Both the position numbers and the translations under genes were made by a program. Below, piece by piece: positions 2,725 to 16,970 of a DNA stretch of 17,300 nt. The DNA comes from a virus. Taxonomy: Duplodnaviria; Heunggongvirae; Uroviricota; Caudoviricetes. The stretch's first letter is position 1. Every line of letters starts with the position of its first letter. Below the pieces are notes generated by a model. The model had not been told where the DNA came from. It made no database searches and saw nothing but the letters and a program-made list of their open reading frames with translations. The stretch is from positions 1 to 17,300 of IMG/VR virus record IMGVR_UViG_2541047802_000012; one strand, written 5' to 3'.

Positions 2725-3096
2725 ATGACTAAAAATATCCGTAATCTGGCACTGGCAACGATGTCGGGGTTTCGCCATAAAACTGTTGATGTGCCTGAAT
2801 GGGAAGGGGCAACGGTTGTATTACGGGAACCTTCTGCAGAAGCCTGGTTGCGCTGGCAGGAGATCGTTAAAGCAAAAGATGATGAGACACCGTTATCCGT
2901 TGCGGAGCGCGCCCGCCGAAATCTGGAGGCAGATGTTGAACTGTTCATTGATGTTCTGTGTGATACCGGACTGCAACCTGTATTTTCAGAGGATGATCGT
3001 GAACAGGTGATTGCCGTGTATGGCCCGGTGCATGCGCGGCTTCTTCGGCAGTCTCTGGAACTGATCAGTGATGCCGGTGAGGTTAAAAAAAAGTAG
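2725..3096 (+). CDS. tail assembly chaperone G (short, zero-frame product)
   Basis: Located between the major tail and tape measure genes and ends in a slippery A8G run directly before its stop. GAGGA at 2712-2716 is well spaced for ATG 2725; the ORF track's 2710 start (TAATG overlap) lacks a Shine-Dalgarno but cannot be excluded. Confidence 0.7.
   Translation: MTKNIRNLALATMSGFRHKTVDVPEWEGATVVLREPSAEAWLRWQEIVKAKDDETPLSVAERARRNLEADVELFIDVLCDTGLQPVFSEDDREQVIAVYGPVHARLLRQSLELISDAGEVKKK
3087..3093 (+). other. -1 programmed ribosomal frameshift site A_AAA_AAG joining G to T
   Basis: The heptamer is in the zero frame of G (codons AAA 3088-3090, AAG 3091-3093), one codon before the TAG stop. The -1 frame from 3093 is open (GTA GCG CTT CCG GGG ATG...) and is the frame of ORF 3108-3398. 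A_AAA_AAG is the same slippery heptamer used in E. coli dnaX. Confidence 0.7.
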
Positions 3097-3398
3097 CGCT
3101 TCCGGGGATGCGTTTTCTGATGATGCTGGCGCTCAGGATGGGGCGCACATTGTCAGAGTTACGCCGGGAAATGTCCGCATCAGAAATCATGATGTGGGCA
3201 GAATTTGACAGGTTCAGCCCGCTGGGTGACGAGCGGGCTGATATCCGGGCTGCCCAGATAGTTTCTGCGGTTTACGGTGCGCAGGGTGTCAAAGTCCCAC
3301 TGAATGATGCGCTTCTTCAGTGGGAGAAGGAGCAGACAGAAGGCGTATCAGATCCATTTGCCGGACTGGAAAACGCGCTTTTAATAGTGTCTCAGTGA
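3093..3398 (+). CDS. T segment of the G-T frameshift fusion chaperone (expressed as 2725..3092 plus 3093..3398 after the -1 shift)
   Basis: -1 frame ORF with no independent Shine-Dalgarno. Motif EIMMWAEFDRFSPLGDERADIRAAQI resembles the T domain of lambda-type GT proteins. Conserved G/GT architecture upstream of the tape measure gene. Confidence 0.65.
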   Translation, partial: VALPGMRFLMMLALRMGRTLSELRREMSASEIMMWAEFDRFSPLGDERADIRAAQIVSAVYGAQGVKVPLNDALLQWEKEQTEGVSDPFAGLENALLIVSQ

Positions 3399-8998: not shown

Positions 8999-9016
8999 TG
9001 AAAAACGTTTTATGTG

Positions 9017-9040
9017 AAACCGCCTCCGGGCGGTTTTGTC
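9017..9040 (+). terminator. hairpin (AAACCGCC-TCCG-GGCGGTTT) with a short interrupted T-tract between I and J; weak or partial terminator, or an mRNA structure
   Basis: Inverted repeat 9018-9024 / 9029-9035 read directly; the downstream TTGTCGTTT is only moderately U-rich. Confidence 0.3.
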
Positions 9041-9058
9041 GTTTATGGAGCGTTAGGA

Positions 9059-12000
9059 ATGGGTAAAGGCAGCAGTAAGGGGCATACTCCGCGCGAAGCG
9101 AAGGACAACCTGAAATCCACGCAGTTGCTGAGCGTGATAGACGCCATCAGTGAAGGGCCGATTGAAGGTCCGGTGGACGGATTAAAAAGTGTGCTGCTGA
9201 ACAGTACGCCAGTGCTGGACAGTGAGGGGAATACCAATATCTCCGGTGTCACGGTGGTTTTCCGGGCAGGTGAGCAGGAGCAGACACCGCCGGAGGGATT
9301 TGAATCCTCCGGCTCCGAGACGGTGCTGGGTACGGAAGTGAAGTACGACACGCCGATTACCCGGACCATCACGTCTGCAAACATCGACCGTCTGCGCTTT
9401 ACCTTCGGTGTGCAGGCACTGGTGGAAACCACCTCAAAGGGGGACCGGAATCCGTCGGAAGTCCGCCTGCTGGTTCAGATACAGCGTAATGGTGGCTGGG
9501 TGACGGAAAAAGACATCACCATTAAAGGCAAAACCACCTCACAGTATCTGGCATCGGTGGTGGTGGGTAACCTGCCGCCGCGCCCGTTCAATATCCGGAT
9601 GCGCAGGATGACGCCGGACAGCACCACAGACCAGCTGCAGAACAAAACGCTCTGGTCGTCATACACCGAAATCATCGATGTGAAACAGTGCTACCCGAAC
9701 ACGGCACTGGTCGGCGTACAGGTGGATTCGGAGCAGTTCGGCAGCCAGCAGGTGAGCCGTAATTATCATCTGCGCGGGCGTATTCTGCAGGTGCCGTCGA
9801 ACTATAACCCGCAGACGCGGCAATACAGCGGTATCTGGGACGGAACGTTTAAGCCGGCATACAGCAACAACATGGCCTGGTGTCTGTGGGATATGCTGAC
9901 CCACCCGCGCTACGGCATGGGGAAACGTCTTGGTGCGGCGGATGTGGACAAATGGGCGCTGTATGTCATCGGCCAGTACTGCGACCAGTCGGTGCCGGAC
10001 GGCTTTGGCGGCACGGAGCCGCGCATTACCTGTAATGCGTACCTGACCACACAGCGTAAGGCGTGGGATGTGCTCAGTGATTTCTGCTCGGCGATGCGCT
10101 GTATGCCGGTATGGAACGGGCAGACGCTGACGTTCGTGCAGGACCGACCATCAGATAAGGTGTGGACCTATAACCGCAGTAATGTGGTGATGCCGGATGA
10201 TGGCGCGCCGTTCCGCTACAGCTTCAGCGCCCTGAAAGACCGCCATAATGCCGTTGAGGTGAACTGGATTGACCCGGATAACGGCTGGGAGACGGCAACA
10301 GAGCTTGTGGAGGACACGCAGGCCATTGCCCGTTACGGTCGTAACGTCACGAAGATGGATGCTTTTGGCTGTACCAGCCGGGGGCAGGCACACCGCGCCG
10401 GGCTGTGGCTGATTAAAACAGAACTGCTGGAAACGCAGACCGTGGACTTCAGCGTGGGTGCCGAAGGGCTTCGCCATGTGCCGGGTGATGTTATTGAAAT
10501 CTGCGATGATGACTATGCGGGGATCAGCATCGGCGGGCGCGTGCTGGCTGTGAACAGCCAGACCCGGACGCTGACGCTCGACCGTGAAATCACGCTGCCA
10601 TCCTCCGGTACCACGCTGATAAGCCTGGTTGACGGTCAGGGTAATCCGGTCAGCGTGGAGGTCCAGTCCGTCACCGACGGCGTGAAGGTGAAAGTGAGCC
10701 GTGTTCCTGACGGCGTTGCTGAATACAGCGTGTGGGGGCTGAAGCTGCCGACGCTGCGCCAGCGCCTGTTCCGCTGCGTGAGTATCCGTGAGAACGACGA
10801 CGGCACGTATGCCATCACCGCCGTGCAGCATGTACCGGAAAAAGAGGCCATCGTGGATAACGGGGCGCACTTTGACGGCGACCAGAGCGGCACGGTGAAT
10901 GGTGTCACGCCGCCAGCGGTGCAGCACCTGACCGCCGAAGTCACCGCAGACAGCGGGGAATATCAGGTGCTGGCGCGCTGGGACACGCCGAAGGTGGTGA
11001 AGGGCGTGAGTTTCCTGCTTCGCCTGACCGTGGCAGCGGATGACGGCAGTGAGCTGCTGGTCAGCACGGCCCGGACGGCGGAAACCACATACCGCTTCAG
11101 GCAACTGGCGCTGGGGAACTACAGGCTGACAGTCCGGGCGGTAAATGCGTGGGGGCAGCAGGGCGATCCGGCGTCGGTATCGTTCCGGATTGCCGCACCG
11201 GCAGCACCGTCGAGGATTAAGCTGACGCCGGGCTATTTTCAGATAACCGCCACGCCGCATCTTGCGGTTTATGATCCGACGGTACAGTTTGAGTTCTGGT
11301 TCTCGGAAAAGCGGATTGCGGATATCAGGCAGGTTGAAACCACAGCCCGCTATCTTGGCACGGCGCTGTACTGGATAGCTGCCAGTATCAATATCAAGCC
11401 GGGCCATGATTATTATTTTTACGTTCGCAGTGTGAACACAGTCGGCAAATCGGCATTCATGGAGGCTGTCGGTCGGGCGAGCGATGATGCGGAAGGTTAC
11501 CTGGATTTTTTCAAAGGAGAAATCGGGAAAACACATCTGGCCCAGGAGCTGTGGACGCAGATTGATAACGGTCAGCTTGCGCCGGACCTGGCTGAAATCA
11601 GGACGTCCATTACGAATGTCAGCAATGAAATCACGCAGACCGTCAATAAAAAACTGGAAAATCAGAGTGCGGCAATCCAGCAGATACAGAAAGTTCAGGT
11701 TGATACAAATAATAACCTGAACAGCATGTGGGCTGTGAAGCTGCAGCAGATGCAGGACGGACGCCTTTATATCGCGGGTATTGGTGCCGGTATTGAGAAC
11801 ACCCCCGACGGTATGCAGAGTCAGGTGCTGCTGGCGGCAGACAGGATTGCGATGATTAATCCTGCGAATGGCAACACAAAGCCGATGTTTGTTGGGCAGG
11901 GCGATCAGATATTCATGAACGAAGTGTTCCTGAAATATCTGACGGCTCCCACCATTACCAGCGGCGGTAATCCTCCGGCATTTTCCCTGACACCGGACGG

Positions 12001-12538
12001 GCGGCTGACGGCGAAAAATGCCGATATCAGCGGTAACGTGAATGCGAACTCCGGGACGCTCAACAACGTCACGATTAACGAGAACTGCCGGGTTCTGGGA
12101 AAACTGTCCGCGAACCAGATTGAAGGCGATCTCGTTAAAACAGTGGGCAAAGCTTTCCCCCGGGACTCCCGTGCACCGGAACGGTGGCCATCAGGGACCA
12201 TTACCGTCAGGATTTATGACGATCAGCCGTTTGACCGGCAGATTGTTATTCCGGCGGTGGCATTCAGCGGCGCTAAACATGAGAAAGAGCATACTGATAT
12301 TTACTCCTCATGCCGTCTGATAGTGCGGAAAAACGGTGCTGAAATTTATAACCGTACCGCGCTGGATAATACGCTGATTTACAGTGGCGTTATTGATATG
12401 CCTGCCGGTCACGGTCACATGACACTGGAGTTTTCGGTGTCAGCATGGCTGGTAAATAACTGGTATCCCACAGCAAGTATCAGCGATTTGCTGGTTGTGG
12501 TGATGAAGAAAGCCACTGCAGGCATCACGATTAGCTGA
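9059..12538 (+). CDS. J: tail tip central fibre / host specificity protein J, with divergent C-terminal receptor-binding region
   Basis: From [54 protein letters not shown] onward it follows lambda gpJ closely for roughly 800 residues, including the FN3-like region ([27 protein letters not shown]). The last ~330 aa diverge. The ORF track's 9014 start is a GTG extension running through the hairpin. Confidence 0.9.
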
Positions 12539-12605: not shown

Positions 12606-13205
12606 ATGCGTACATTATGTGCTGTTATTTTGTCCGCAGTAGTCTGGCAGGTCGCCGCTGCTACGCCAGCGAGTGCAGCAGAACATCAGTCCACGCTGAG
12701 CGCGGGGTATCTCCATGCCTCGACGAACGTTCCCGGTAGTGATGATCTGAACGGGATTAACGTGAAATACCGTTATGAGTTTACGGACATGCTGGGTGTT
12801 GTGACGTCATTCAGTTATGCCAATGCCAAAGATGAGCAAAAAACGCATTACAGCGATACCCGCTGGCATGAAGATTCAGTGCGTAACCGCTGGTTCAGCG
12901 TGATGGCGGGGCCGTCTGTGCGCGTGAATGAATGGTTCAGCGCGTATGCGATGGCGGGTATGGCTTACAGCCGTGTTTCGACTTTCTCCGGAGATTATAT
13001 CCGCGTAACTGACAACAAGGGGAAAACGCACGATGTGCTGACCGGAAGTGATGACGGTCGCCACAGCAACACGTCTCTGGCGTGGGGGGCTGGCGTGCAG
13101 TTTAACCCGACCGAATCCGTGGCCATTGACCTTGCTTATGAAGGTTCCGGCAGTGGCGACTGGCGCACTGACGGTTTCATCGTGGGTGTCGGTTATAAAT
13201 TCTGA
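12606..13205 (+). CDS. lom: Lom-like outer membrane beta-barrel protein (Ail/Lom/PagC family), with signal peptide
   Basis: N-terminal signal peptide MRTLCAVILSAVVWQVAAATPASA. The C-terminal IDLAYEGSGSGDWRTDGFIVGVGYKF is identical to the lambda Lom C-terminus as I recall it, and GINVKYRYE matches the Ail/Lom family. GAGAGG Shine-Dalgarno upstream of ATG 12606. Confidence 0.85.
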   Translation: MRTLCAVILSAVVWQVAAATPASAAEHQSTLSAGYLHASTNVPGSDDLNGINVKYRYEFTDMLGVVTSFSYANAKDEQKTHYSDTRWHEDSVRNRWFSVMAGPSVRVNEWFSAYAMAGMAYSRVSTFSGDYIRVTDNKGKTHDVLTGSDDGRHSNTSLAWGAGVQFNPTESVAIDLAYEGSGSGDWRTDGFIVGVGYKF

Positions 13206-13258: not shown

Positions 13259-13269
13259 GTGGAGTGGAT

Positions 13270-15648
13270 ATGGCAGCAGTAAAAATCTCAGGTGTGCTGA
13301 AAGATGGTGCGGGAAAACCAATACAGAACTGCACTATTCAACTGAAGGCAAAGCGTAACAGCACCACGGTACTGGTGAACACGGTGGCCTCTGAAAATCC
13401 GGATGAAGCCGGACGTTACAGCATGGATGTTGAGTATGGCCAGTACAGCGTCACCCTGCTGGTTGAAGGTTTTCCGCCTTCACATGCCGGGACCATTACC
13501 GTCTATGAAGGTTCCAGACCAGGTACGCTGAATGATTTTCTCGGTGCCATGACGGAAGATGATGTCATGCCGGAGGCATTGCGTCGTTTTGAGGCAATGG
13601 TGGAAGAAGTGGCACGCAACGCCGAAGCCGCCTCTCAGAGCGCAGCGGCGGCAAAGAAATCCGAAACTGCAGCGGCATCATCAAAGAACGCGGCGAAAAC
13701 CTCAGAAACGAATGCAGCTAATAGTGCACAGGCGGCAGCGACCTCAAAGACTGCATCGGCAAACTACGCGACAGCAGCCAAAAAATCAGAAACCAACGCG
13801 AAAAATAGCGAGACAGCCGCAAAGACGAGCGAAACCAACGCAAAGTCCAGCCAGACGGCAGCGAAGACCAGCGAAACGAATGCTAAAGCCAGTGAAACTG
13901 CAGCAAAAAACAGCCAGGTTTCAGCAGCCCAAAGCGAGAGTGCCGCTGCCGGTTCTGCGACTTCAGCTGCCGGATCAGCAACTGCTGCGGCTAACAGCCA
14001 GAAAGCTGCGAAGACGAGTGAAACTAACGCAAAGTCCAGCCAGACGGCAGCGAAGACCAGCGAAACGAATGCCAAAGCCAGTGAAACTGCGGCGAAAAGC
14101 AGTCAGGATGCAGCGGCCCAAAGCGAGAGTGCCGCAGCCAGTTCTGCAAGCGCGGCGGCTGCTTCTGCTACTGCATCAGCTAACAGTCAAAAAGCAGCAA
14201 AAACCAGTGAAACTAACGCAAAGGCGAGCGAAACAAAAGCAGCAGCCAGCGAGACAGAAGCAACGTCAGCCGCAACAAGAGCAGAGAATGCAGCCCGGAT
14301 TGCAGAAGATGCCGCTGATCCTGCTTCTGTCCCTCCGCTTCCTGATATCTGGCTACCCTTGAATGATTCTCTGGAAGCGATAACAGGGTATGCGCCGGGG
14401 TATAAAACAATAACCATCGGCAGCGATGAAATCACTGTGCCAGTTAATGGCATATGCCAATTTAGCCGGGCTTCATCTGCAACGTATATTGATAAGTCCG
14501 GGCATATTACCGTGGCAGGTAATAACGTTCCTCGTTTTGAAAAATATGGTTTGCTGATAGAGAATCAGCGAACAAACATGTTCGTAAATAGTTTTAATCC
14601 TGATGCGTGGAATAAAAGCGGTGGTATATCTGTAACATCATCAACAGATGAATTTGAGTTTAAATATGGACGTTTCACGGTAGGAAGCGATATAGCAGGA
14701 ACGACAACAGGGAGAAATATATGCACAGTTGCTGGTAACAAAGGCATAGATGTGACTGGCGATGATCAGTACAGTAAAGGTCCGTATGTTACCGCGTCGT
14801 TCAGGGTAAGAAGTGATCTCAATGTTCGCGCACGTATCCGTTTTGAACGGTATAACTCGGAAGGATACACCTTCCTTTGCGACGCCTATTTGTCATTACA
14901 GACCCATGAACTACAAATTACTGGTGGCAATGCCCAGCTATTAACAGCAAACTTTGAAATCGACCCTGGTAGTGGATGGATATATTTTCAGGCAACACTG
15001 AAATGTCTGCCAGAATGGGGAATGGTTGGTACGCAGCTGCAAATTGCAGCCGACAGAGCTGTGGGAGCTTTTGCAACAGGTGACTGGATAGAAGTAACCA
15101 CCCCGCAATTCGAGTATGGTGCTTGTGCAACTTCCTTCATCATAACGACAACAGAGCCAGCGACTCGTGCATCAGATTTATGTAAATTTCCGCTGATGAA
15201 AAATATGTATACCATGCCTTTTACGTTCATGGTGGAAGTCCATAAAAACTGGTTTATTTCTCATAATGCTGCACCGCGTGTCATTGATTCAGAAAATCAC
15301 CAGTCCGGAGGCCCATTTATTATGGGGTTTGGTTCTTCTGGAACTATCAGTCAGGACGGTTATTCGTATTGCGATATAGGCGGGGCTAACCGACGTGTAT
15401 ATGAATCATGCGGAGTAAGGGATCTCGTTATGGGATTCAGGGTTAAGGCTGACGGCATGACATGCTCATTTGCAAATAAGCATATAAGCGCTGAAACAAA
15501 AACAGTATGGAAATATATTCGTGAAGCAGCCGTGATTCGTATCGGGGGGCAAACGACGACAGGATTACGACACCTTAATGGTCATATAAAAAACCTCCGT
15601 TTCTGGAACAGAGCATTGTCAGATACGCAGCTTAAGGAATACGTATAA
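13270..15648 (+). CDS. stf: side tail fibre protein, Stf-like: lambda-like N-terminal attachment domain, Ala/Ser/Thr-rich repeat shaft, lectin-like (ConA/LamG-type) C-terminal tip
   Basis: MAAVKISGVLKDGAGKPIQNCTIQLKAKRNSTTV...YSMDVEYGQYSV...GFPPSHAGTITVYE matches the lambda Stf N-terminus as I recall it, with GGAG 6 nt upstream of ATG 13270. The C-terminus ends ...GHIKNLRFWNRALSDTQLKEYV, which fits the characteristic terminal motif of LamG-like jelly-roll domains (G.IDEVRIYNRALS..EI). Confidence 0.85.
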   Translation: MAAVKISGVLKDGAGKPIQNCTIQLKAKRNSTTVLVNTVASENPDEAGRYSMDVEYGQYSVTLLVEGFPPSHAGTITVYEGSRPGTLNDFLGAMTEDDVMPEALRRFEAMVEEVARNAEAASQSAAAAKKSETAAASSKNAAKTSETNAANSAQAAATSKTASANYATAAKKSETNAKNSETAAKTSETNAKSSQTAAKTSETNAKASETAAKNSQVSAAQSESAAAGSATSAAGSATAAANSQKAAKTSETNAKSSQTAAKTSETNAKASETAAKSSQDAAAQSESAAASSASAAAASATASANSQKAAKTSETNAKASETKAAASETEATSAATRAENAARIAEDAADPASVPPLPDIWLPLNDSLEAITGYAPGYKTITIGSDEITVPVNGICQFSRASSATYIDKSGHITVAGNNVPRFEKYGLLIENQRTNMFVNSFNPDAWNKSGGISVTSSTDEFEFKYGRFTVGSDIAGTTTGRNICTVAGNKGIDVTGDDQYSKGPYVTASFRVRSDLNVRARIRFERYNSEGYTFLCDAYLSLQTHELQITGGNAQLLTANFEIDPGSGWIYFQATLKCLPEWGMVGTQLQIAADRAVGAFATGDWIEVTTPQFEYGACATSFIITTTEPATRASDLCKFPLMKNMYTMPFTFMVEVHKNWFISHNAAPRVIDSENHQSGGPFIMGFGSSGTISQDGYSYCDIGGANRRVYESCGVRDLVMGFRVKADGMTCSFANKHISAETKTVWKYIREAAVIRIGGQTTTGLRHLNGHIKNLRFWNRALSDTQLKEYV
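13650..14260 (+). repeat. in-frame tandem direct repeats inside stf (about 189-bp unit, two near-identical copies plus partial copies; encodes reiterated K-T/S-SETNAK-A/S-S-E/Q-T-AAK motifs)
   Basis: The string gcaaagtccagccagacggcagcgaagaccagcgaaacgaatgc recurs near 13840 and near 14029 (offset 189 bp) with flanking similarity; the protein shows the corresponding repeated motif. Confidence 0.7.
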
Positions 15649-15917
15649 TGCGAGATATAACATTACGATTCGATAACAGAGAACAGTTTAACGCAATTGT
15701 ATATGACAGTGGCCTGTTCAGTCTTGAAGAAGAAAACGGGGTTCTTGTTGATGTTATTGGCTGCATTATCGATTACGAGGAGCCAGAAAACGAAAGATGT
15801 ACAGGCATTGATCGCGGTGGTTTTTTCGTAAACATGAGGATTGTTGATAGCAGTAAAAACATATCTTCTTTAATGCCTTTCATTACGACAGATCAGCATG
15901 TAAGGACATGGGCTTAA
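15648..15917 (+). CDS. hypothetical 89-aa acidic protein, first gene of a low-GC cassette
   Basis: ATG 15648 overlaps the stf stop (TAATG), with AAGGAA upstream. Visibly AT-rich relative to the tail genes. No family recognised. Confidence 0.5.
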   Translation: MRDITLRFDNREQFNAIVYDSGLFSLEEENGVLVDVIGCIIDYEEPENERCTGIDRGGFFVNMRIVDSSKNISSLMPFITTDQHVRTWA

Positions 15918-15929
15918 TGGAGTAAGACA

Positions 15930-16970
15930 ATGGTTACAAAAACAGTAATTCCTGATGACATCAAAACGCTAAAATCCGATGTTAGTAAACTAAAAACTGA
16001 TCAAGGAAGCTATGCAACAAAATCATATGTAGACAATAAAACAACATGGAATAGTTATTGCAATGTAATCTATGATCAAAAGGCATTGCCGACCACTGGA
16101 ACTATATTTAGCGGTAAGATTCACTTGTCAAATAAGACAGGAGAAACCGAAAACGCTTATAGTGAGATGTACACCAGAAAAAATATTGACGGTACAAAAG
16201 ATACAATGACAAGGATTGTCACACACAATGGAACAAAAGGTATCTTTTGGGATTTTAGCGATCTTTACGGCGGAACATTAATTTTTCCAGGCAGTGATGG
16301 TTACCTTAAGATGGGGAACTGTCTCATGTCGTATGGTGTGCGGGGAAGTAACGCGCTTATTAAGTTTGACTGCACAGACACATTACAAATCAAATATGCC
16401 AATCATGGGTCAACCATGACATTAAACACACAGGGAACCGCTTATGCTGGTGTTACTGCTCAATTGTGGGGCAACTCCAGCCGTCCTGTTGTTTATGAAG
16501 TCGGTGTTGATGGTGGCGCTTATATGTTCTATGCGCAGAAAAATACCGATAACACCTATATGTTAAGCGTTAATGGTGCATGTCATGCCACCGCATTTAA
16601 CCAGCATTCCGACCGGGATCTGAAAGACAACATTCAGGTGATCGATAATGCAACCGACCGCATCCGTAAAATGAACGGCTATACATACACGCTTAAAGAA
16701 AACGGTATGCCCTATGCTGGTGTCATTGCACAGGAAGCTCTGGAAGCAATCCCAGAAGTTGTAGGTTCCGCAATGAAATATCAGGACGGTGCAAGCGGAT
16801 CGGAAGGTGAAGAAGGTGAACGTTATTACACAGTAGATTATTCTGGTGTTACTGGCTTGCTTGTTCAGGTAGCCAGAGAGTCAGACGACAGAATAACAGC
16901 ACTGGAAGAAGAAAACGCAGAATTAAGACAAAGATTATCTGCAATTGAGGCGGCGCTTGCGTCTAAATAA
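15930..16970 (+). CDS. tail-fibre-like protein with C-terminal intramolecular chaperone / autoproteolysis domain (peptidase S74-type)
   Basis: GGAG 7 nt upstream of ATG 15930. The C-terminal ~120 aa (HSDRDLKDNIQVID...YTYTLKENG...AGVIAQEALEAIPEVV...YTVDYSGVTGLLVQ...ALEEENAELRQRL) matches the conserved S74 chaperone-of-endosialidase pattern, including the Ser-x4-Lys dyad spacing (Ser codon 16608-16610, Lys codon 16623-16625). Confidence 0.7.
   Translation: MVTKTVIPDDIKTLKSDVSKLKTDQGSYATKSYVDNKTTWNSYCNVIYDQKALPTTGTIFSGKIHLSNKTGETENAYSEMYTRKNIDGTKDTMTRIVTHNGTKGIFWDFSDLYGGTLIFPGSDGYLKMGNCLMSYGVRGSNALIKFDCTDTLQIKYANHGSTMTLNTQGTAYAGVTAQLWGNSSRPVVYEVGVDGGAYMFYAQKNTDNTYMLSVNGACHATAFNQHSDRDLKDNIQVIDNATDRIRKMNGYTYTLKENGMPYAGVIAQEALEAIPEVVGSAMKYQDGASGSEGEEGERYYTVDYSGVTGLLVQVARESDDRITALEEENAELRQRLSAIEAALASK

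Follow-up and report, generated by a model that had tools for sequence, protein, structure and literature searches.

The 189-nt tandem repeats found in the window, the whole 17,300-nt stretch of phage DNA that was analysed, are best read as part of the proximal rod of a lambda-type side tail fibre (Stf), an Ala/Ser heptad coiled coil in which a nine-heptad block has been duplicated and in which the gain or loss of heptads yields a series of length alleles. We put the probability of this reading at about 0.88. The gene is, judged from its sequence, that of a PF08400-bearing lambda-type Stf, and it is laid out as follows.

13270 to 15648, + strand: stf, the side tail fibre gene, 792 aa from the ATG at 13270, with an in-frame GTG at 13264
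13270 to 13569, + strand: N-terminal collar domain (StfN/PfN beta-sandwich) and short linker, matching the 94-aa Ur-lambda Stf collar chain 9e7m/9mgh (E 7e-49)
13570 to 14325, + strand: heptad-periodic rod, 36 heptads laid out without a phase break
13822 to 14010, + strand: 189-nt unit, copy 1, nine heptads, aa 185-247 from the ATG
14011 to 14199, + strand: 189-nt unit, copy 2, nine heptads, aa 248-310 from the ATG, 84.1% identical to copy 1
14200 to 14235, + strand: start of a third unit (KTSETNAKASET), 36 nt, whose first heptad has 19 of the 21 nt of the copy 2 head
14326 to 15648, + strand: Pro-rich connector and distal fibre, including a beta-sandwich domain (about 14554-15171; NF048003, AF2)

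The placement of the repeats in a tail fibre shaft, proposed by the first-pass annotation, was borne out by homology searches. PF08400 matched residues 5-134 of Stf (E 5.4e-67, Pfam) and the PHROG 1419 'tail protein' profile aligned with it end to end (4-794 of 793 profile positions). The best Foldseek match of the N-terminal domain, for which AF2 predicted strands to about residue 78, was 9e7m, with 87% identity over 94 aa. In the closest relative, strain A33, whose gene is 97.9% identical, the RefSeq start is the equivalent ATG. The gene follows J (9014-12538, with seven gpJ Pfam domains) and lom (12606-13205; PF06316, E 4.9e-123), and this J-lom-stf order, which is that of a lambda-like tail module, is common to the window, A33 and phage IdasGreatGrand. 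On the 3' side of stf lie an 89-aa ORF and then a second fibre gene with an S74 chaperone domain. The distal part of the protein matched NCBIfam NF048003 (GTA_spike_fiber) at aa 431-636 (E 2.2e-12), reached an AF2 pLDDT of 70-90 for residues about 440-615 and gave weak Foldseek matches to CBM4, the K2-2 tailspike and Pseudomonas phage fibre proteins. The Pfam search of Stf gave no match to PF03406 (Phage_fiber_2) at E <= 0.01, a domain present in the Salmonella relative P0119, and neither a PF01391 match nor a Gly-X-Y tract in the translation that would indicate a collagen domain. No specific Pfam or NCBIfam model covers the repeat tract, and its weak matches to SMC, DnaX and NlpC were set aside as compositional.

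Tandem Repeats Finder reported a period of 189 at 13807-14223 (2.2 copies, 84% matches, zero indels, score 589), with 42- and 21-nt periods nested inside it. A repeat search of the window also recovered the 189-nt pair, at 83% identity, together with a 31-nt repeat family in which every spacing is a multiple of 21. The off-diagonal signal anticipated at 189-bp spacing was present when the sequence was compared with itself: nucleotide self-identity at lag 189 was 0.623, against 0.354 +/- 0.021 and a maximum of 0.419 in 1000 codon shuffles, and at lag 21 it was 0.531 against 0.354 +/- 0.018. The best 14 self-identity lags were all multiples of 21. The fundamental period is one heptad, 21 nt or 7 aa, nine of which make up 189 nt. 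The two units are in frame and differ at 30 of the 189 positions, with 18 synonymous and 8 non-synonymous codon differences and 55 of 63 amino acids identical; the peptide quoted by the first-pass annotation, KTSETNAKSSQTAAKTSETNAKASETAAK, occurs exactly twice, spaced by 63 aa. The differences are unevenly spread, 11 falling within the initial 126 nt and 19 within the final 63 nt, and only over their opening 84-126 nt can the units be described as near-identical. As for the additional degenerate copies that had been described, they do not exist as 189-nt units: a candidate third copy upstream of copy 1 was rejected, as in register it matches copy 1 no better than the general heptad background, at 5-13 of 21 nt per heptad. 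What does exist is a series of heptad or 14-aa repeats across 13612-14325, plus the 36-nt start of a third unit. The earlier reading was right about a coding shaft repeat and about length variation, and it overlooked the real period of 21 nt, one coiled-coil heptad.

Within the rod, the first two heptads, PEALRRF and EAMVEEV, carry hydrophobic core residues, and the other 34 (13612-14325) follow the pattern [K/A]-x-S-x-x-x-A without a break, Ser occupying position 3 in 29 and Ala position 7 in 32 of them. The composition over these 238 aa is 36.1% A, 18.1% S and 12% T, with only 1.3% LIVMFWY. One point against a coiled coil is that stable ones do not typically have a core of Ala and Ser. Beyond the collar domain the seven-residue pattern continues unbroken for about 250 residues. 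In the proposed structure, Ala (position 7) and Ser (position 3) would supply the a and d core positions, and the Lys of position 1 and the Glu of position 4 would be placed for i/i+3 salt bridges. Three chains would most likely form a parallel alpha-helical coiled coil, about 35 nm long, that would keep the distal and probably carbohydrate-binding portion of the fibre off the tail. The trimeric helical state is proposed by analogy, from published work on homologues. AF2 predicted monomer helices at residues 102-220, 241-321 and 331-347, broken at Gly-containing heptads, with low confidence in the shaft (pLDDT 36-61). In the model of the full protein (31-sequence alignment, mean pLDDT 47.6) the rod is folded back on itself and is usable for secondary structure only; the same trouble with the rod was met by the Ur-lambda authors using AlphaFold3 (PMC12617516).

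The closest described counterpart is the Ala/Ser-rich region that follows PfN in prophage fibres of EHEC, named 'PCoil' by Ghosh et al. 2012 (PMC3368898). The PCoil of the collagen-like tail fibre proteins EPclA-D was found by experiment to form an alpha-helical coiled coil that is trimeric and melts reversibly; it contains 32% Ala and 19% Ser, is almost devoid of L, I and V, places Ala and Ser at the heptad core positions, and differs in length among homologues by multiples of seven (PMC3368898). Similarly, the rod of the window follows the same PF08400 N-terminal domain (PfN), is a low-complexity Ala/Ser-rich tract with small residues at a and d, and varies in length among relatives nearly always by multiples of seven. 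By contrast, the EPcl PCoil measures only 116 aa in most of the listed proteins and gives way to a collagen triple helix and PfC, whereas the window rod has about 250 aa, includes a duplicated 63-aa block rich in Thr, Lys and Asn (KTSETNA), and leads into a Pro-rich connector and a beta-sandwich. Residues 102-393 of Ur-lambda gpStf have been termed the 'proximal coiled-coil domain', and it is for Ur-lambda only that a trimeric fibre with its N-termini in a dodecameric collar on the tail is known (PMC12617516). The window protein shares with gpStf a homologous collar domain (9e7m/9mgh), the same rod start residue and the same genome position. It differs from lambda Stf, which has a gp37-like distal half and needs Tfa, in having the GTA-spike-fibre-like beta-sandwich, and the lambda-like relative phage 1W has just 21 heptads, without the 63-aa unit.

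Two more distant resemblances deserve mention. The heptads of T5-like lateral tail fibre proteins (DT57C LtfA, PDB 8hqz chain d; T5 pb1) are likewise rich in Ala, Ser, Glu and Lys and carry a K-x-SE-x-NA motif; the shaft aligns with the LtfA N-terminal region over about 190 aa, a weak and compositionally biased match (E 1.3e-4). Beyond its N-terminal domains, on leaving the collar, the LtfA trimer is described as a three-helix coiled coil (PMC10713586). Unlike the window Stf, the LtfA fibre is held by a separate collar protein, LtfC, and the remaining fibre differs too. Segmented coiled-coil rods built of heptads are also found in T4 fibritin (gpwac) and in streptococcal M proteins, in which recombination between repeats adds or drops heptad blocks to give size variants; these are unrelated in sequence to the window rod and have canonical hydrophobic cores, and the M proteins are dimeric bacterial surface proteins.

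To compare shafts, length was counted from ALRRF to the first Pro. Shafts with the connector of the window were 248 aa (window) and 241 aa long, and those with the other connector class 189, 203, 224, 238, 245, 252 and 315 aa, all of which equal 189 + 7n. The 63-aa unit is present once in the 189-aa shafts, twice in those of 252 aa and three times in those of 315 aa, which confirms the proposal that shaft length varies among relatives. Most length variants, however, differ by a few heptads and not by whole 189-nt units: differences of 1, 2, 5, 7 and 8 heptads between alleles also occur, almost every change is a whole number of seven-residue steps, and the range across relatives is 21 to 45 heptads. 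Between strain A33 and the window the difference is exactly 21 nt, an indel at 14156-14176 inside copy 2. The one-unit allele was found in phage IdasGreatGrand and several complete E. coli chromosomes, and the two-unit allele is common (hundreds of complete genomes and 57 IMG/VR contigs). An exact 41-mer pattern search found the three-unit allele in one 8-kb IMG/VR contig of unknown sequencing quality. When an artificial three-unit query was compared with complete E. coli genomes, each of the best 30 rows was a two-unit allele that aligned in two overlapping pieces, in a ranking blind to two versus three units. With a one-unit query, the stretches matched in complete chromosomes were equal in length or 105, 168 or 189 nt longer. 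Seven length classes were in register and four off register (P = 2e-4 under a null of 1/7), in a search that favoured complete shafts; the off-register shafts (240, 222, 211 and 184 aa) are each a single cluster from partial proteins, and lengths of database proteins marked partial are uninformative on breaks within the repeat. A mutational mechanism alone, without selection for helical phase, could account for the excess of 21-nt multiples.

The structure of these alleles suggests recombination or slippage as the mechanism. The 189-nt unit is a duplicated nine-heptad block, and misaligned homologous recombination or slippage would gain or lose whole heptads because the DNA repeats itself with periods of 21, 42 and 189 nt, so that the helical phase would be kept; one heptad would account for ~1 nm and the nine-heptad block for ~9.4 nm. 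The one-unit allele consists of a copy-1 head and a copy-2 tail, and such a hybrid would be the expected product of a crossover in the unit head, where identity is 94-100%. Changes in copy number keep the reading frame, the units of 21, 42 and 189 nt being multiples of 3 and all the length alleles seen being in frame. For this reason a phase-variable contingency repeat, acting by a shift of frame or of promoter spacing, was rejected.

A possible alternative, which we consider to have an appreciable though minor chance of being correct, is that the rod DNA serves mainly as a homology tract for exchanging the distal receptor-binding half between prophages, with length variation as a neutral by-product; this would be compatible with a coiled coil. 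BLAST against many phages and genomes showed that stf from nt 1 to 968-972 (window 14231-14235, in the third-unit start) is 96-97% identical to genes with unrelated 3' halves, and the end of the third-unit start coincides with the point at which similarity to Stf genes having other C-terminal halves stops. Similarity to other relatives ends at 13622, 13739 or 13896, all within the rod, the same shaft precedes two different connectors and C-terminal domains, and homologous recombination between lambda and defective prophages across stf/tfa has been measured experimentally (PMC3945230). Nevertheless, the positions at which BLAST alignments end do not map crossovers, and a role as homology tract leaves the strict heptad phase unexplained.

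It is improbable that the Ala/Ser/Thr/Lys-rich tract is a flexible, intrinsically disordered linker with no structured rod. Its low complexity, the scarcity of large hydrophobic residues (1.3%), the low AF2 confidence and its position outside any Pfam family would agree with disorder; however, a linker of this kind does not account for a register maintained strictly over 34 heptads at both Ser3 and Ala7, nor for lengths quantised in sevens among relatives. Moreover, the homologous PCoil shows a cooperative helical transition by CD and a stalk by EM (PMC3368898), and the model of Ur-lambda based on cryo-ET places a coiled coil at this location (PMC12617516).

Assembly collapse, to which the first-pass annotation had thought this region prone, is a minor worry for the repeat of the window, and there is very little chance that the duplication is an assembly artefact or that the one-unit alleles are collapsed assemblies. 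Tandem repeats can mislead assemblers and a hybrid one-unit structure is also expected from collapse, but with 30 of 189 positions different the longest exact run common to the copies is 47 nt (13837-13883 = 14026-14072). Both copies are intact in more than 100 draft-genome proteins as well as in the IMG/VR contigs and hundreds of complete genomes that carry the two-unit form, and the one-unit form is present in several complete chromosome assemblies and an isolated phage. We give practically no credence to coding in another frame or strand by the ORFs at 13559-14362 (+), 13764-14075 (-) and 14187-14453 (-), which are long but match no PHROG family (0 of 3), since the +1 product is an Arg/Gln/Pro-rich string typical of a repeat read off frame and the stf frame runs uninterrupted from one recognised domain to another.

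Beyond the assignment to a coiled-coil rod, we advance only tentatively, and with considerable doubt, the idea that rod length is a selected and quantised trait. The number of heptads, and notably of nine-heptad cassettes (one to three, in steps of ~9.4 nm), would then tune the reach of the side fibre relative to the J tip to match the thickness of the host O-antigen or capsule, the repeat DNA also being a crossover site for the swapping of receptor-binding halves. Rod length may in this way affect adsorption.

The 189-nt repeat is an ordinary and already described feature, the known Stf PCoil or proximal coiled-coil domain, and its importance beyond annotation is small. A low-complexity stretch without a Pfam model can now be assigned to a defined element, the Stf coiled-coil rod, in which the unit of variation is the heptad, and the natural series of alleles may be of use to engineers of lambda-type particles with swapped Stf in choosing rod lengths and fusion points.

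The repeats lie within a single long open reading frame, which the ORF caller starts at a GTG at 13264; its equivalent in E. coli strain A33, the closest complete-genome relative (97.9% identity), starts in RefSeq at the ATG two codons downstream, corresponding to window position 13270. The encoded protein opens with a prophage tail fibre N-terminal domain (PF08400, E 5.4e-67). Its first 94 residues correspond to the Ur-lambda side tail fibre collar domain, for which a structure exists (9e7m/9mgh, E 7e-49); the same chain is also the best Foldseek match for the protein. The entire protein matches PHROG 1419 'tail protein' from end to end. Encoded 5' of it are a Lom protein and a homologue of gpJ that carries seven gpJ domains, which makes the window a lambda-type tail module and the repeat-bearing gene its side tail fibre gene, stf. 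That the repeats are coding in another frame was rejected, as none of the ORFs overlapping them there matched a protein family and all look like off-frame translations of the repeats.

Repeat-bearing gene and 189-nt units (window positions)
13264/13270-15648 (+): stf, a single long ORF containing the repeats
13822-14010: copy 1 of the 189-nt unit, in codon and heptad register
14011-14199: copy 2 of the 189-nt unit, in codon and heptad register
14200-14235: 36-nt start only of a third unit, directly after copy 2

Tandem Repeats Finder reported a period of 189 nt at 13807-14223 (2.2 copies, 84% matches, 0 indels, score 589) with 42-nt and 21-nt arrays nested within it, and the same pair was recovered at 83% identity by a separate repeat search. 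Self-identity at a lag of 189 reached 0.623 compared to 0.354 +/- 0.021 (maximum 0.419) in 1000 codon shuffles, which bears out the tandem 189-bp coding repeat described in the first-pass annotation; the peptide quoted there occurs exactly twice, 63 residues apart. At a lag of 21 the self-identity was 0.531, and the top 14 lags were all multiples of 21, as are the spacings (84, 42, 42, 147, 42 and 147) between the seven copies of a 31-nt repeat family. The two units are 84.1% identical and differ at 30 nt, of which 11 lie within the leading 126 nt and 19 within the final 63, so that their description as near-identical holds for the head of the unit and fails for the remainder. Eighteen codon differences are synonymous and 8 non-synonymous, leaving 55 of 63 amino acids identical. 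What had been taken for additional degenerate copies proved to be heptad-level repeats and not further 189-nt units.

In the protein, a single unbroken heptad register begins with PEALRRF (nt 13570) and continues through EDAADPA (nt 14325). In the first two heptads of this rod the core is conventionally hydrophobic (F, V, M, L), and the next 34 follow the pattern [K/A]-x-S-x-x-x-A, with Lys or Ala at position 1 and with Ser occupying position 3 in 29/34, Thr position 5 in 21/34 and Ala position 7 in 32/34. The rod contains 36% A, 18% S, 12% T, 10% K and 8% E, and just 1.3% large hydrophobic residues. Heptad positions 7 and 3 are spaced by 3 and 4 residues, which is the a/d spacing of coiled coils; the 189-nt unit corresponds to nine heptads and the 42-nt sub-period to two. 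The AF2 monomer model places helix at residues 102-220, 241-321 and 331-347 with low confidence (shaft pLDDT 36-61) and folds back at Gly-containing heptads, making it usable only for secondary structure. The Ala/Ser-rich region following the PfN domain in fibre proteins of E. coli O157 prophages, which carry the same PfN domain as the window Stf, has been named 'PCoil' (Ghosh et al., PLoS One 2012, PMC3368898). A weak alignment (E 1.3e-4) also links the window shaft with the N-terminal region of DT57C LtfA (8hqz chain d). By its sequence characters, the tract would belong to the PCoil / Stf coiled-coil domain class; the earlier reading of the biology was correct but had missed that the repeat is a heptad coiled coil, of a kind already described.

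Shaft length, from ALRRF to the first proline, was compared among 120 database protein clusters.

Shaft lengths in the window and in database protein clusters
Window-type connector, 248 aa: window and one cluster
Window-type connector, 241 aa: 59 clusters
Second connector type, 252 aa: 45 clusters
Second connector type, 245 aa: 1 cluster
Second connector type, 238 aa: 2 clusters
Second connector type, 224 aa: 1 cluster
Second connector type, 189 aa: 5 clusters

A33 is exactly 21 nt shorter than the window, with the gap at 14156-14176 within copy 2; the nearest phages are those of the PhiR55_1 group (96-97%). The 189-aa shaft, carried by the isolated phage IdasGreatGrand, lacks exactly one 63-aa unit, and this one-unit allele was found as a single-piece match in the complete chromosomes AVS0655, MSB1_4I and CB209, with other complete genomes in that search being 105, 168 or 189 nt longer. 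An exact-pattern scan of IMG/VR gave two units in 57 contigs, three units in one contig and one allele with a 203-aa shaft. The sole three-unit allele found, in an 8-kb contig whose sequencing technology is not given (L005, IMGVR_UViG_2541047862_000009, 2826-3244), has three sequence-distinguishable units, a 315-aa shaft and an intact downstream reading frame. Relatives with one, two or three copies of the 63-aa unit thus support the proposed variation in shaft length. All of these second-connector lengths, 203 and 315 aa included, equal 189 + 7n. Shafts of 240, 222, 211 and 184 aa (P0105, P0112, P0113 and P0117) are out of register, each in a single cluster and all in partial proteins; they represent deletions of 12, 30, 41 and 5 aa relative to the common 252-aa allele or the 189-aa allele, which would introduce a discontinuity in the coiled coil, and they may be either functional genes or errors. 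Seven length classes are in register versus four off register (P = 2e-4, 1/7 null), a bias in which selection for helical phase is not separable from mutation because recombination between 21-nt-periodic DNA itself favours heptad steps. In the one-unit allele a copy-1 head is fused to a tail of the copy-2 type, a hybrid that a crossover in the nearly identical unit head would give. The lambda-like phage 1W keeps the same register with just 21 heptads and no 63-aa unit, and the 1101-aa Stf of GPEC484 has about 35 heptads.

The suggestion that the repeats are prone to assembly collapse is not supported by their sequence. The longest exact run common to both copies is 47 nt (13837-13883 and 14026-14072), the second longest being 20 nt, and there are 30 mismatches per 189 nt, so that reads or k-mers exceeding about 50 nt should tell the copies apart. 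Intact pairs occur in 57 IMG/VR contigs and in over 100 proteins encoded by draft genomes. Most close homologues among the 120 clusters (P0001-P0120), a sample biased to complete-shaft proteins, are 'partial' and end at about 470-640 aa, so breaks in draft-genome contigs tend to fall within the distal half of stf and not in the 189-nt repeats; they are likely caused by sequence common to several prophages in one genome.

Within the distal part of the fibre, at 14554-15171 (aa 431-636, GTG numbering), lies a domain of the 'GTA/phage head spike fibre' type (NF048003, E 2.2e-12), confidently modelled by AF2 as a beta-sandwich, with weak Foldseek matches to CBM4 carbohydrate-binding modules, the K2-2 tailspike and fibre proteins of Pseudomonas phages E217/Pa193. 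Together, domain, model and matches suggest a polysaccharide receptor. Directly 3' of stf no assembly gene resembling tfa was identified; two other ORFs follow there.

ORFs downstream of stf (window positions)
15648-15917: 89-aa ORF (phrog_1361, function unassigned), its start overlapping the stf stop
15930-16970: second fibre protein, 346 aa, with a Peptidase_S74 intramolecular chaperone domain, after the 89-aa ORF

In A33 the second fibre gene is annotated only as a short 5' fragment (partial pseudogene), just upstream of the IS66-family element ISEc8. The shaft of the homologue P0057 contains RPRRLHRQTS, a +1-frame reading (the window +1 frame, 13559-14362, gives RPQRLHRQTT), which reflects either a compensated frameshift pair or a sequencing error. 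In P0119 (Salmonella Typhimurium, partial) the PfN collar domain and rod start are duplicated in tandem (...ALRRFEAMVEEVARQASEASRNATAAGQATPVQNCTIQLK..., then a second ALRRF), with about 270 aa of Ala/Ser rod following; PF03406 repeats are also present.

Judging from published homologues and the sequence, three Stf chains most likely form a parallel coiled-coil rod, the oligomeric state being predicted. Coiled coils rise 0.1485 nm per residue, and 238 residues would span about 35 nm, with steps of about 1.0 nm per heptad and 9.4 nm per nine-heptad unit. Such a rod would hold the distal part of the fibre apart from the collar, and misaligned recombination or slippage in the periodic DNA would change its length by whole heptads, as allele structure and work on homologues suggest. 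The conserved rod DNA may have a second role, compatible with the rod, as homology for swapping distal fibre halves. Consistent with this, stf has a mosaic junction: over its initial 968-972 nt (collar and rod) it shares 96-97% identity with the Stf genes of many phages and genomes. The 3' halves of those genes are unrelated to it, and similarity ends at 14231-14235, in the start of the third unit; recombination across stf/tfa has been measured between lambda and defective prophages (PMC3945230). Further relatives drop out of similarity at about 13622, 13739 and 13896, each within the rod. The coiled-coil rod of variable length is an ordinary finding, because annotated genes with 96-98% identity to this one exist and both the domain class and the quantisation of length in seven-residue steps have already been published.
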